From: a virus
Lineage: Duplodnaviria > Heunggongvirae > Uroviricota > Caudoviricetes
IMG/VR virus record: IMGVR_UViG_2645727715_000001
Location: 1-4,648 of that record
Length of the DNA stretch: 4,648 nt
Direction: 5' to 3' (one strand)
This document shows positions 1 to 4,648 of this stretch, piece after piece. The first letter of the stretch is position 1. The number at the start of each line of letters is the position of its first letter. Made by a program: the position numbers and the translations under genes. A model generated the notes under the pieces. It did no database searches. It saw only the letters and a program-made list of their open reading frames with translations, and was not told the origin of the DNA.

Positions 1-303
1 CTACTGGATGAACGGGAAAGGAACCAGCAATACATCAAATCCCGCGACCAGGAGAACGAGGATATTGCGCTAACGGTAGGGAAGTTGCGCGTTGAGCTTG
101 AGGCAGAAAAACAGCGGGCAAAGGATCTGTTTATGGAAAATGCTCGGCTTAAGTCAGGTATAGCCGGTCTGATACACCTCGGTATTCGATATGCAGATGT
201 TGATGTCATGAAAATTGCTGGAGATGCCCAGCTTTCTACCCCATGCACTGACAGCATCATAAACAGCATTGCAACAGGCATTCGCATCAACGGAGGTGAG
301 TAG
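1..303 (+). CDS. 5-prime-truncated ORF continuing upstream of the window; hypothetical prophage protein, C-terminal ~100 aa with a charged helical stretch (LRVELEAEKQRAKDLFMENARLKS)
   Basis: Frame 1 is open from base 1 with no stop until TAG 301-303; the tool ORF 85-303 is only its TTG-initiated tail. Same strand and orientation as all downstream genes. Confidence 0.55.
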   Translation, partial: LLDERERNQQYIKSRDQENEDIALTVGKLRVELEAEKQRAKDLFMENARLKSGIAGLIHLGIRYADVDVMKIAGDAQLSTPCTDSIINSIATGIRINGGE

Positions 304-479
304 TGCGTGTGGCATGTATTGGCTTGTTACCGTACCCGACTCGTTTTTGGGCTTCTGCGCTAATTGCAAAGCCACAGGTCCTGATGGCTGACAACATCAC
401 CCCAGCACCAAAGCGCCGCCATACCGGTATTGCAGCGGCACGACGAGCAGCAAAGAGACGCAGGAGAGCAAAGCGATGA
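303..479 (+). CDS. Possible small ORF (58 aa, GTG start) with hydrophobic N-terminus and strongly Arg/Lys-rich C-terminus (AARRAAKRRRRAKR); below the 60-aa cut-off of the ORF track
   Basis: GTG at 303 overlaps the upstream stop (taGTG) and lies 6 nt after GGAGG (292-296); frame 3 is open to TGA 477-479, which overlaps the ATG of the next gene (ATGA). It fills an otherwise unusual 172-nt gap in a coupled operon. Alternative ATG at 384. Confidence 0.3.
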   Translation: MRVACIGLLPYPTRFWASALIAKPQVLMADNITPAPKRRHTGIAAARRAAKRRRRAKR

Positions 480-664
480 AAAACCGTAAAGCAAAGATTC
501 TGTTAGTTCGTAGAAACGCTCCTGGCGTCTGGCAGTGGGTGAGACTCAGCAACCGACGGATGGGGTTAATGAAACATTACGGGATGATGGATTGTTGGTT
601 TTGCAAAAAGCCCAGCGCGGCGCAAAACCGCTGGAAAAACCACTTGCGCACTAAAGGAGAGTGA
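476..664 (+). CDS. Small very basic protein, 62 aa (16 Lys/Arg vs 2 Asp/Glu); possible nucleic-acid-binding protein, function unknown
   Basis: ATG 476 preceded by AGGAG (462-466) at 9-nt spacing; stop TGA 662-664 followed 1 nt later by ATG 666 of the next gene. Confidence 0.55.
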   Translation: MKNRKAKILLVRRNAPGVWQWVRLSNRRMGLMKHYGMMDCWFCKKPSAAQNRWKNHLRTKGE

Positions 665-670
665 TATGGC
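653..670 (+). repeat. 18-bp gene-junction repeat AAAGGAGAGTGATATGGC, copy 1 (stop of ORF 476-664, RBS and start of ORF 666-1181)
   Basis: Exact identity with 1553-1570, read directly from sequence; both upstream proteins end in KGE. Confidence 0.9.
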
Positions 671-1181
671 GTTAACACACCGCGAACTCTGTCAGATTGC
701 GTACAAGTTCCTTAAGCGCAACGGGTTCAAGGTTTGTTTTCATGACCGCTTTATAGCTGTAACCAGTACCGGAGAACAGCCAGATGCTATGGGATTCAGA
801 AATTCAGCATCATGCCTGATAGAGGCGAAATGTTCTCGTGCTGACTTGTTGGCAGATAGAAAAAAGCGTTTTCGTAAAAATCCGTCTCTTGGAATGGGCG
901 ACTGGCGATTCTTTATTAGTGAGCCGGGAATTATTTCAATTGAGGATTTACCACCTGGCTGGGGATTACTTCACGTTGTTAACGGAAGAGTACGGAAAGT
1001 ACATGGGTGGCCCAAGGGTAATTGCTGTTGGGGTAATCCTGACGATAAGCCATTTACTGGAAATAAGCAGGTTGAATGCGATTACATGTTATCTGCATTA
1101 AGGCGTATGGAGTTGAGAGGGCACCTTAATGAAATATATGACGGTGTAATTGTTAATAAGAAAGAAGGAAACGCGGCATGA
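666..1181 (+). CDS. Putative PD-(D/E)xK-fold nuclease-like protein, 171 aa, with Cys/Trp-rich C-terminal region (GNCCWGNPDD...ECDY)
   Basis: ATG 666 with AGGAG 6 nt upstream. N-terminal region shows E7, P39-D40 followed by hydrophobic residues, then hydrophobic-IEAK (E53-x-K55) followed by a basic helix (RADLLADRKKRFRK), the classic spacing of a PD-(D/E)xK core. Stop overlaps next start (ATGA at 1178-1181). Fold assignment is motif-based only. Confidence 0.7.
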   Translation: MALTHRELCQIAYKFLKRNGFKVCFHDRFIAVTSTGEQPDAMGFRNSASCLIEAKCSRADLLADRKKRFRKNPSLGMGDWRFFISEPGIISIEDLPPGWGLLHVVNGRVRKVHGWPKGNCCWGNPDDKPFTGNKQVECDYMLSALRRMELRGHLNEIYDGVIVNKKEGNAA

Positions 1182-1564
1182 TCACTATTACCAAAGAGCG
1201 ACTGCTGACAATCAAGCAGTGGCGCGAAACATACGGACCTGGTAGCAACGTTGTACTGCCAGCAGAAGAAGCGGAAGAACTGGCACGGATTGCGCTGGCA
1301 TCGCTGGAAGCAAAACCAATAGGTGCTTTCCACATTGCAGAACAGCAGGTCGATGGCACAAGTGACTACATCAAGGATGGGGAGTGGCCTATTGATAATG
1401 GAATTATTGAGGTCTACGCCGCTCCACCCGTTCCAGTAGTACCGGAAGAAAAACCAATGCCTAATCCTCTTAGCATGTACGCGGTTGATGCTGTTGCCGC
1501 TATTGCAGAGGTGAGAGGCTGGAACGCCTGCCGCGCTGCAATGCTTCAGGGAAAAGGAGAGTGA
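1178..1564 (+). CDS. Hypothetical phage protein, 128 aa; paralog of the N-terminal half of the downstream 315-aa protein
   Basis: ATG 1178 overlapping upstream stop; GAAGGA 1164-1169 as RBS. Shares MxTITxE start, ELARI(A/V)LASLEA(K/E)P and (V/L)Y(A/T)(A/T)PP(V/A)P motifs with ORF 1772-2719, including a 34/35-nt identical DNA stretch. Confidence 0.75.
   Translation: MITITKERLLTIKQWRETYGPGSNVVLPAEEAEELARIALASLEAKPIGAFHIAEQQVDGTSDYIKDGEWPIDNGIIEVYAAPPVPVVPEEKPMPNPLSMYAVDAVAAIAEVRGWNACRAAMLQGKGE
1277..1311 (+). repeat. 35-bp in-frame repeat, copy 1 (GAACTGGCACGGATTGCGCTGGCATCGCTGGAAGC)
   Basis: 34/35 identity with 1937-1971; encodes ELARIALASLEA. Confidence 0.9.
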
Positions 1565-1570
1565 TATGGC
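1553..1570 (+). repeat. 18-bp gene-junction repeat AAAGGAGAGTGATATGGC, copy 2 (stop of ORF 1178-1564, RBS and start of ORF 1566-1775)
   Basis: Exact identity with 653-670. Confidence 0.9.
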
Positions 1571-1775
1571 TATTGCCGCAAGTTACACAATGCATCTCTA
1601 TTGTGACTGCCGCCAGTGTACGGAAGGTGTATATCCAGTGCCAGACTTCGGTGAGTATATAGGTACGTCATGGGCTGGCTGTGCAAAAGAGGCGCGCAAG
1701 GATGGCTGGCGAATAAAGCAAAGACAAACGCGTGCTTTTGCGCCTGGGCATAAAGTTTTGAGGATTAACAAATGA
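1566..1775 (+). CDS. Small Cys-rich protein, 69 aa (C13-x-C15-x2-C18 ... C39); possible zinc-ribbon-like protein
   Basis: ATG 1566 preceded by the same AAAGGAGAGTGAT junction as gene 666-1181; stop TGA 1773-1775 overlaps ATG 1772 of the next gene. Confidence 0.6.
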   Translation: MAIAASYTMHLYCDCRQCTEGVYPVPDFGEYIGTSWAGCAKEARKDGWRIKQRQTRAFAPGHKVLRINK

Positions 1776-2719
1776 CCACTATTACCAGAGAACAAGCTCT
1801 GAAAATTATTGAGGCAGCCGATGAGGTTATTAGTGCGCTGGCCGGAACTAACGAGGATGTTCACCCTGGTAGCGATAACATGCTACGCCTGTGGGATGAC
1901 CTGAATGACCGTTACGCGCCGCCGGAAATTGTGCGTGAACTGGCACGGATTGTGCTGGCATCGCTGGAAGCCGAGCCTGTTCTGTATCAGTCCTGCACTC
2001 GCCCCACCTGGAATAGCGGTGTTCCGTGGACGGAATGGAAAGAACGAAGTCGTGAGTGCTACGAAGACGATTTGCGCTTTACAGACACGCCTGACCATGC
2101 CGGTTGGATATACAAATGTCGAAAACTATATACCACTCCGCCAGCGCCGATAGCGTTAGAGGCCATTGAAAACGCAATTGAATACATCCGCAGTATCGCT
2201 TTTCACATCGATGAAGACGATTACCACGGCAAACATATTGCGTATTTCATGCAGCAAGCATTGGCCTGGCTGGAAGGGCATTCATGCAGCGACGACAGAC
2301 TGGGTAAAGCCGAGAATCAACCAGTACGCGGCAACCAGGCTGCCGAATCCAATCGCGATAATGAGTGGACTGGCAATCCTGATATTGATAACGCCATCAT
2401 CATGCTCGACCGCATAGATACGCTGGAAAATTGCGATGATGACCGTATTGAGGCTGTTAAGGCTGTTTTGCGTAGACTGGCTGGCAACTATCCGGTAATT
2501 CCGGATGGTTGGATAAGCTGTAGTGAGCGAATGCCTGAGAACATTCCCGGAAGTTGTAAAGAGTATCTGGTGTTTGATGGGCTTAATAATAAAGTTCATC
2601 ACGATTACTGGGTTGTCCCTGATGGAGACAGTGCGCCAGTTGCGTCGTTCTGGAATCATTACGGGGCACATGTAACTCACTGGATGCCTCTACCAGAACC
2701 GCCGCAGGAGGCGAAATGA
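1772..2719 (+). CDS. Phage protein, 315 aa, with C-terminal DUF551-like domain (family recalled from memory) and N-terminal module shared with ORF 1178-1564
   Basis: ATG 1772 with GAGGA 7 nt upstream. C-terminus IPDGWISCSERMPE...KEYLVFDG...HHDYWVV...FWNHYGAHVTHWMPLPEPP matches my recollection of the DUF551 pattern found in enterobacterial prophage proteins. Longest ORF in the window. Confidence 0.85.
   Translation: MTTITREQALKIIEAADEVISALAGTNEDVHPGSDNMLRLWDDLNDRYAPPEIVRELARIVLASLEAEPVLYQSCTRPTWNSGVPWTEWKERSRECYEDDLRFTDTPDHAGWIYKCRKLYTTPPAPIALEAIENAIEYIRSIAFHIDEDDYHGKHIAYFMQQALAWLEGHSCSDDRLGKAENQPVRGNQAAESNRDNEWTGNPDIDNAIIMLDRIDTLENCDDDRIEAVKAVLRRLAGNYPVIPDGWISCSERMPENIPGSCKEYLVFDGLNNKVHHDYWVVPDGDSAPVASFWNHYGAHVTHWMPLPEPPQEAK
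1937..1971 (+). repeat. 35-bp in-frame repeat, copy 2 (GAACTGGCACGGATTGTGCTGGCATCGCTGGAAGC)
   Basis: 34/35 identity with 1277-1311; encodes ELARIVLASLEA. Confidence 0.9.
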
Positions 2720-2976
2720 TGGATGTAAAAGAGAAGGTTTTGCAGGTGATGCGTTCCCGGGCTGCCCTGCAAGATAAAGCTCTCGGCGGGAAATATCCAT
2801 TCAGGATGGCAACCTGGAATCTGCGGTTGGCAATGGAGAAGGAATTTCCTGATGAAGAATGGCGTTCGGCAGATTTGCGCAAAATTCTTATGGAGATGGC
2901 TAAAGATGGAACAGTATCCAAAGATACCCATGCCAGCCGGATTGGTCAGGCGGTATGGAGACTGGAGGTGAGGTAA
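2716..2976 (+). CDS. Hypothetical small phage protein, 86 aa
   Basis: ATG 2716 overlaps upstream stop (ATGA) with strong AGGAGG (2705-2710) at 5-nt spacing; stop TAA 2974-2976. Confidence 0.65.
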   Translation: MMDVKEKVLQVMRSRAALQDKALGGKYPFRMATWNLRLAMEKEFPDEEWRSADLRKILMEMAKDGTVSKDTHASRIGQAVWRLEVR

Positions 2977-3050
2977 TAAGCTGGCCTGAAGCATTTGCGA
3001 TTGTAGGCGTAGCTATGGCGATTGCCGCTATTTTTATCTTCTGGGGGTAA
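2955..3050 (+). CDS. Candidate unannotated mini-ORF, 31 aa, single predicted transmembrane helix (METGGEVISWPEAFAIVGVAMAIAAIFIFWG)
   Basis: Frame 3 ATG 2955 to TAA 3048-3050. It exactly fills the only untranslated gap between 2976 and 3053, and its stop sits 2 nt before the ATG of the next gene. No good SD for ATG 2955; GGAGGTGAG at 2964-2972 is downstream of it. Speculative. Confidence 0.25.
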   Translation: METGGEVISWPEAFAIVGVAMAIAAIFIFWG

Positions 3051-3052
3051 CG

Positions 3053-3268
3053 ATGGGAAAATTAACTTTTGTAGTCGAATTTGAGGATGGCAAAGAGCCA
3101 CCTGTTAGCGCCAATCTTGATGTTGCTGGTGGCAGGCTGGTTTCGGTTCTATTTGGTGATTACCGCGACGACTTCTTTCAGCCTGAAGAAGTTGATGTAG
3201 TGCGAGAAGCATTAAACGAGCTAAGTGTTGATAACGATGATGCTCATGCGGAAATCATCAAAAAATGA
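3053..3268 (+). CDS. Small strongly acidic protein, 71 aa (17 Asp/Glu vs 7 Lys/Arg); candidate DNA-mimic or anti-defence-type protein (hypothesis only)
   Basis: ATG 3053 preceded by GGGGGT; residue composition counted directly from the translation; stop TGA 3266-3268. Confidence 0.65.
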   Translation: MGKLTFVVEFEDGKEPPVSANLDVAGGRLVSVLFGDYRDDFFQPEEVDVVREALNELSVDNDDAHAEIIKK

Positions 3269-3332
3269 ACTGACTACTCACTAAATTATCAATTATGGTG
3301 CTATCACCTACGACACCGAGAGAAAATTTATA

Positions 3333-3455
3333 ATGTCAAAAGTAAATGTTTTGATTTTTTCAGCAATTGTTGGCTTTGGTTTTACTGCCGGAGTGCAGAT
3401 TTATATTACGTGGGAAAAAATCATCAACTACGAATGGAGTTGTTTTATTAAGTGA
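3333..3455 (+). CDS. Candidate small membrane peptide, 40 aa (MSKVNVLIFSAIVGFGFTAGVQIYITWEKIINYEWSCFIK), one hydrophobic helix
   Basis: Frame 3 ATG 3333 to TGA 3453-3455 in the AT-rich segment. Ends 7 nt before ATG 3463, and its 3-prime end contains the GAGGT that would serve as RBS for the next gene. It competes with the TTG-initiated N-terminal extension of tool ORF 3367-3756. Confidence 0.35.
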   Translation: MSKVNVLIFSAIVGFGFTAGVQIYITWEKIINYEWSCFIK

Positions 3456-3462
3456 GGTAAGT

Positions 3463-3756
3463 ATGTGGAGAGGTAATAATCATGGCAAAAGCCAGATGAT
3501 ACTTACCGAATATAAGCTAGACCACAAAACCAATAAATCACGCTCAGTATATTTGCTCCGGCACAATAGCCGCGTAAGAAATACCGTGCTGGAACAAAAT
3601 CTGACAGTTGAAATGGATAATTGCGGGGGATTCAAGCCAACAATTTCGCTTGATGATTTTCCTCGTGGTTTAAGCGAAAGAGAAGCAATGCTGAAATTAG
3701 CAGAATGGCTACAAAGATTAAGCATTGCTATTGAAGATAACTGGTCTGAACCTTAA
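3463..3756 (+). CDS. Hypothetical protein, 97 aa if started at ATG 3463 (tool call 3367-3756 uses an upstream TTG)
   Basis: Frame 1 ORF ending TAA 3754-3756; ATG 3463 has GAGGT (3454-3458) upstream, though at short spacing; alternative in-frame ATG at 3496. Followed by a perfect hairpin-forming palindrome at 3789-3805. Confidence 0.5.
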   Translation: MWRGNNHGKSQMILTEYKLDHKTNKSRSVYLLRHNSRVRNTVLEQNLTVEMDNCGGFKPTISLDDFPRGLSEREAMLKLAEWLQRLSIAIEDNWSEP

Positions 3757-3788
3757 ATTTATATGATGACACTAAAACATTTTCTTGA

Positions 3789-3805
3789 CCGCCCATTATG
3801 GGCGG
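3789..3805. repeat. Perfect 17-bp palindrome CCGCCCA-TTA-TGGGCGG (7-bp GC-rich stem, 3-nt loop); possible RNA hairpin or dimeric-protein binding site
   Basis: Read directly; located 33 nt downstream of stop 3756; a TTGACC hexamer (3785-3790) abuts it. No U-tract follows on either strand. Confidence 0.6.
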
Positions 3806-3990
3806 CAGCCGCAGGCTATGACTTTAATTATATGGATTGCATGTCTTGTACTGCCAATGCATACGACCATTCGTTCATCCTGCTGTTTAATTCTTTAAGA
3901 ATATTGCCGGAAACAGTATTTCTTAGGTGATGGAATGACTGATATTGCCAAAATGAACATTGAAGAATGGACTAAGGAATGTGAAAAGAA

Positions 3991-4146
3991 ATGGCGCAAA
4001 AAGAAATGACCAGAATCACTGAAGAGCGCATATCAGAGATTATTTCCCGTATCGAAATGTATGGTCACGGTGCTGGATATACGGCAGATGAAGTATTGGA
4101 AATAGCCCAGCAGATGCTGGCCTTGAGACAAAAAAGAGCAACATGA
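3991..4146 (+). CDS. Possible short ORF, 51 aa (MAQKEMTRITEERISEIISRIEMYGHGAGYTADEVLEIAQQMLALRQKRAT); may be a fragment of a disrupted gene
   Basis: Frame 1 ATG 3991 to TGA 4144-4146. It is overlapped by a 24-codon ORF (3935-4009, frame 2, good AGGTGA RBS) and followed by a frame 2 ORF, so the region looks frame-broken. Confidence 0.3.
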   Translation: MAQKEMTRITEERISEIISRIEMYGHGAGYTADEVLEIAQQMLALRQKRAT

Positions 4147-4162
4147 AAGCAATACGTGTAGA

Positions 4163-4552
4163 TTGAATTTTGAGCAGTGGCTGGAACAGCAACGCGGGAA
4201 AATCGATGTGGACTGTGGTTGTGTGTCCACTGAAACATTCATGCACTGGCTGCGGGTAGCTTACGAGGCTGGCAACTATCCGGATATTCCGGATAGTTCG
4301 GCGCAAGCACCAGGGAAGGGGGGGCTTCCCCGGAGAGCGGATTCGAATTAAGCCGCATGTTTACCGTGAACTGGTTAACCGCCTCCACGATACAGCGATC
4401 AAGTGTGCTGGCACCCAGCAATTACGGGAAAGAATTAGCCGCGTTTTTGGCGAAGTTATTACACCAGATCGTCATAAACAAGCCGAGAAAAGCGGTCTGG
4501 AAAGGAGTCATCTTGAAGCGGCATTAAACATTAAACCGGGCAGTACGCTAGT
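4163..4552 (+). pseudogene. Frame-disrupted or mis-sequenced gene: frame 2 ORF (4163-4351, TTG start) continues without any start codon in frame 3 from 4260 to the end of reliable sequence
   Basis: Frame 3 is open from 4260 onward but has no ATG/GTG/TTG; the frame 2 to frame 3 switch coincides with a G7 run (4318-4324). Deleting one G would join the two into one ORF (...APGKGGFPGERIRIKPHVYRELVNRLHDTAIKC...). Confidence 0.35.
4276..4296. repeat. 21-bp inverted repeat CTATCCGGA-TAT-TCCGGATAG (9-bp arms); also a direct repeat of TCCGGATA
   Basis: Read directly; lies inside ORF 4163-4351, encoding YPDIPDS. Confidence 0.5.
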
Positions 4553-4648
4553 GGGGAAAAATTTTTCCCCGGGAAAAAAATTTTTGGGGTTTTTAAAAAA
4601 ACCCCAAAAAAAGGGGCCCCCTTTTAAAAAACCCCGGGTTTTAAAAAA
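4553..4648. other. Low-complexity homopolymer-stutter tract (GGGG AAAAA TTTTT CCCC GGG AAAAAAA ...), most likely sequencing or assembly artefact at a contig/read end rather than genomic sequence
   Basis: Every base occurs in runs of 3-7, cycling through all four nucleotides for about 96 bp to the end of the window; nothing like this occurs in the preceding 4.5 kb. Confidence 0.7.

Follow-up and report, generated by a model that had tools for sequence, protein, structure and literature searches.

A homopolymer stutter in Ion Torrent flow order at the end of a P1-like phage-plasmid contig

Roche 454 pyrosequencing, like the process to which we trace the tract described here, is a form of sequencing by synthesis in successive flows, is subject to homopolymer-length miscalls, and uses a plain four-step TACG flow cycle. 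On Ion Torrent instruments (PGM/Proton), errors predominantly take the form of homopolymers called too long or too short, and the error level increases with flow number (Bragg et al. 2013, PMC3623719). The same authors described a 32-flow cycle called “Samba” (PMC3623719), and the corresponding 32-step string, TACGTACGTCTGAGCATCGATCGATGTACAGC, is the flow order supplied to DWGSIM for the simulation of Ion Torrent reads (10.1101/201442). The errors characterized in that work stem from the same platform and the same 32-flow order as the tract at the end of our contig. The 14 homopolymer-length errors found elsewhere in this contig represent the ordinary form of Ion Torrent error, whereas the tract represents an extreme form, in which 20 flows in a row are all positive and each is called as 3-7 bases.

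The window, meaning the whole stretch of 4,648 nucleotides under analysis, corresponds in full to the 4648-bp record LEKZ01000325.1 from E. coli D92/09 (GCA_001038025.1), as identified through a 71-aa product, shortened by a frameshift, that occurs in this window only, and the tract fills the last 96 nt of that record, such that it terminates a complete record at a true contig end. The original prediction had described a homopolymer stutter of ~96 bp at 4553-4648, cycling through runs of 3-7 identical bases of all four nucleotides, and it was right about the coordinates to one base. On the + strand, the 96 nt from 4553 to 4648 read G4 A5 T5 C4 G3 A7 T5 G4 T5 A7 C4 A7 G4 C5 T4 A6 C4 G3 T4 A6, amounting to 20 homopolymer runs, each of 3-7 nt, with all four bases represented. 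The start of the tract is defined to ±1 base, as G4553 may be real and correspond to the G found after T in the references. Outside the tract, the mean run length in the remaining window is 1.36, and 96 nt hold between 57 and 82 runs in all other stretches, compared with 20 in the tract. Within it, mean run length depends on the nucleotide, in the order A (6.3) > T (4.6) > C (4.25) > G (3.6).

With each run reduced to a single letter, the tract becomes GATCGATGTACAGCTACGTA, a string that occurs in the cyclic Samba order at position 18 only, spanning positions 18-31 and then 0-5. All 20 of the 20 runs agree with the Samba order in + strand orientation, with no flow skipped, and the chance of such a match is ~7e-9 by simple arithmetic (32 flow stretches over 4x3^19 run orders). 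The Samba string is further backed by other assemblies, in which stutters fit it exactly over as many as 310 consecutive runs. According to its announcement (PMC4588619), the LEKZ01 genome was sequenced to 16.5x on a 314 chip of an Ion Torrent PGM, and the Torrent Assembler plugin was used for assembly; the announcement thus independently confirms the platform to which the run order alone points. A different artefact could be envisaged, namely a 454 tail, a library adapter, enzymatic tailing, or padding introduced by an assembler or scaffolder, given that 454 is also flow-based with homopolymer errors and that adapters and tails do occur at read ends. However, GATCGATGTACAGCTACGTA does not occur anywhere in a repeated TACG cycle, a misfit on which a 454 pyrosequencing artefact was rejected; enzymatic tailing yields one single homopolymer, adapters are fixed complex sequences, padding would consist of N or lack a flow order, and the deposited genome was made on the PGM. 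We consider an origin of this kind very improbable.

The register between the tract and the sequence that precedes it was examined by simulating the genuine upstream sequence in flow space from many start points and with each of the 32 possible starting phases. The simulated phase converges, with T4552 falling on flow 16 in 96% of the start/phase combinations; after flow 16 come one empty C flow and then G flow 18, which is the first flow of the tract. The chance of such a register between tract and upstream sequence is ~1 in 8. Since T4552 lies on flow 16 and every flow of the tract from flow 18 onward is represented, the tract and the upstream sequence look like a single continuous + strand read whose late flows all received multi-base calls. 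At its other end, position 4648, the tract stops at Samba cycle position 5 (…CAGCTACGTA), and two stutters in a Hymenobacter contig (L010, NZ_MDZC01000125.1), ending at 100 and 511, also stop at cycle position 5. This shared end points to a final flow number that is fixed at 6 modulo 32 and that, to our knowledge, corresponds to no standard run length.

The sequence upstream of the tract is P1-like, and closed relatives are available for comparison (Table 1). In addition to the three closest E. coli plasmids, many further P1-like plasmids and phages match positions 1-4551 in a mosaic pattern. Whether in phages, plasmids, or the 5,426 E. coli genomes covered, each match breaks off at 4549-4551, and among the P1-like plasmid and phage records none reaches beyond 4551. 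Independent assemblies carrying the identical tract in the same context were sought, and none was found. Direct alignment to CP088789.1 and P1 shows that, past the junction, the references continue with the remainder of a 207-aa gene and not with stutter, so that a different, coding sequence stands at the place of the tract. In CP088789.1, the next gene downstream of the 207-aa gene is a CDS of 267 nt. The reference sequence over the junction includes …CTAGGTGTCATTGATGCC…, its continuation is also given as …GGTGTCATTGATGCC…, with …ACGCTAGGTGTCATTGATGCCATG… in the junction region, and the references run on with …CTAGGTGTCATTGATGCCATGTTGG… where the window turns into stutter. At the homologous position, the tract is absent in 7/7 retrieved references, and an exact search for it returned 0 matches in viral, genome (185,579 species), and metagenome contig collections. 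A genuine homopolymer or low-complexity element, such as a phase-variable tract, was rejected on its absence at the homologous position in related genomes.

Table 1. Coordinates of the P1-like sequence, its error sites and damaged gene in the window, and of the stutters located in other assemblies
Feature	Location	Strand	Basis
P1-like (IncY-type) phage-plasmid DNA	1..4551	+	99.7% identity over the full length to E. coli plasmids CP088789.1, CP088846.1, CP090076.1
14 flow-call errors	596/598, 1715, 1725, 3259, 3266, 3273, 3275, 4130, 4318, 4448, 4537, 4543, 4550		Alignment
Error-dense last genuine stretch	4537..4552	+	Alignment to CP088789.1 and P1
Damaged 207-aa P1-like hypothetical gene (WP_000057454.1 / UGJ32672.1)	3993..4552	+	Reference annotation, three-frame translation
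Georgenia sp. SUBG003 NZ_CP180204.1 stutters	L013 1340-2601; L009 3290-3826; L011 7717-8000		Exact Samba order
Hymenobacter glacialis CCM 8648 NZ_MDZC01000125.1 stutters	L010 1-100 and 147-511		Exact Samba order
Pantoea eucrina LMG 5346 NZ_MIPP01000104.1 stutter	L012 1-317		Exact Samba order

The same kind of stutter is present in unrelated assemblies. A degenerate pattern composed of six Samba-specific flows, G-A-T-G-T-A, each of at least 3 nt, matched the window once and 0 times in 200 shuffles of it. In viral contigs, this pattern gave no match, while in genome contigs it located five stretches belonging to three unrelated organisms. The stutters of Georgenia, Hymenobacter, and Pantoea comprise 20-310 consecutive runs, without a single departure from the Samba order. 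Like the tract of the window, they are made of short runs (3-8 nt) and are located at the ends of contigs or account for small contigs in their entirety; they differ in being longer (up to 310 runs, 1262 nt) and in the unrelated host sequence. As a pattern that follows the order of reagents recurs in assemblies from unrelated phyla, it is not biological.

Besides, these records offer some observations of their own. The Georgenia record NZ_CP180204.1 is labelled a complete chromosome and carries internal stutters of up to 1262 nt (310 runs), which means that the artefact persists into “complete” genomes, beyond the ends of draft contigs. The small contigs of Hymenobacter and Pantoea are wholly or nearly wholly stutter, and the Pantoea contig corresponds to exactly two 32-flow cycles. 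A literature search for Ion Torrent use in the Georgenia, Hymenobacter, and Pantoea assemblies returned no usable statement. Mean run length per nucleotide is systematic inside each dataset and differs between datasets, the longest runs being those of A in the window and in Pantoea and those of C in Hymenobacter, and the shortest those of T in the Georgenia stretches, which hints at a background signal that is both run-specific and nucleotide-specific.

These comparisons bear on the reading in which the tract is genuine in the P1-like plasmid of the strain, as an unusual low-complexity insertion or rearrangement junction interrupting the 207-aa gene. The passage of the upstream sequence into the tract is unbroken, and the frame of the gene stays open throughout, as a genuine insertion would allow; nothing else speaks for it. 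Against it, the run order is identical to the flow order and in register with the upstream flows, none of the related plasmids and phages contains the tract, nor do three large collections, the pattern recurs in unrelated Actinomycetota, Bacteroidota, and Enterobacterales assemblies, and the contig ends within the tract. Since the run order matches the flow order and is in register, relatives lack the tract, and the pattern recurs in unrelated genomes, we regard a genuine insertion as extremely improbable and, for practical purposes, excluded. That real D92/09 DNA should mimic the flow order by coincidence is, in our estimate, vanishingly improbable.

On the observed run order, register, platform, contig-end position, absence in relatives, and recurrence in unrelated assemblies, we hold it to be nearly certain that the tract is an Ion Torrent base-calling artefact left in the assembly and not DNA of the organism. 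The instrument offers one nucleotide per flow in the fixed 32-step Samba order, and a read normally incorporates in some flows only; here, from Samba flow 18 onward, 20 successive flows were each called as a 3-7-base incorporation. With all flows positive, the called sequence spells out the flow order itself, its letters stretched to homopolymers. The artefact would then have entered the assembly through the untrimmed 3' end of the read or reads forming the contig end, and we infer that quality trimming before assembly was omitted or failed. As for the physical cause, the most likely one is a loss of real template signal, after which nucleotide-specific background would have been rescaled, with each flow read out as several bases; the systematic run lengths per base (A > T > C > G) favor such background over random noise. 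When residual template signal was sought in the tract flow by flow, run length showed no clear relation to the incorporation predicted from the reference, and A flows were 5-7 nt long alike whether the reference predicts 0 or 1 incorporation. Flow-order stutter is familiar from user reports, and no description of it was found in the literature searched.

The original prediction had read the tract as non-biological in appearance and as resembling either a degraded read end or a synthetic tail. Its non-biological character is borne out by a run order that equals the flow order of the sequencer and by references that differ at the site, and a degraded read end agrees with the PGM-sequenced genome, the position at a contig end, and the flow-ordered runs. 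The synthetic tail found no support: the tract originated during base calling, without any addition to the DNA itself.

The remainder of the contig bears the milder imprint of the same platform. Compared with its closest reference, the window shows 15 differences, of which 14 are homopolymer-length or adjacent flow errors, and the only genuine polymorphism is 3433 A/C, common to one reference. At every checkable error site, the retrievable references (4-7 per site) are unanimous and the window deviates, the homopolymer error rate of the contig outside the tract being ~0.3%. Three of the flow-call errors fall in the final 16 genuine nucleotides, 4537-4552, where G4 is called as G3, a spurious G appears at 4543, and GG is called as G at 4550/4551, which shows that the read was degrading right before the tract.

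The genes carried by positions 1-4551 include ead/Ea22-like, DUF551, and eaa genes, in a region located upstream of a DNA polymerase III theta homologue, a gene annotated as “DNA repair protein”, and phd-doc. This ead/Ea22-like, DUF551, and eaa region (window 1-3300, compared with references L002 and L004-L007) shows strong mosaicism across P1-like plasmids: for most references, coverage of the window is no more than 42-84% and is broken into several pieces, and the DUF551 genes are marked as partial or frameshifted in several reference annotations.

Flow-call errors have damaged genes of the window itself. The gene at 3053 encodes 71 aa here versus 77 aa in the references as a result of such errors, and the 207-aa gene is spread over three frames, split by an additional A at 4130 and an additional G at 4318, in a copy that is without its last ~22 codons. 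The correct frame of this gene remains open through the tract, which would append ~32 spurious residues (VGKNFSPGKKFLGFLKKPQKKGPPFKKPRVLK) to a partial gene call. The earlier warning that feature calls extending into the tract would be unsafe holds. A 56-aa ORF at 4357-4527, for which a protein look-up returned no record, is a wrong-frame ORF made by the frameshifts. Because flow-call errors split or truncate at least two genes, any ORF-based finding in this window calls for comparison with a closed P1-like reference, for example CP088789.1.

The tract is an artefact of sequencing and assembly, without biological significance or novelty, and its relevance is practical. The last 96 nt, from 4553, should be trimmed before annotation, and prudently everything from ~4537. 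Gene callers allowing partial genes at contig ends would output ~32 invented residues. Reducing each run to one letter and checking the string against the Samba order constitutes a simple and highly specific screen; one degenerate pattern caught three other public genomes. Public assemblies, “complete” records included, can easily be searched for this class of contaminating artefact, and systematic screening for it is feasible.
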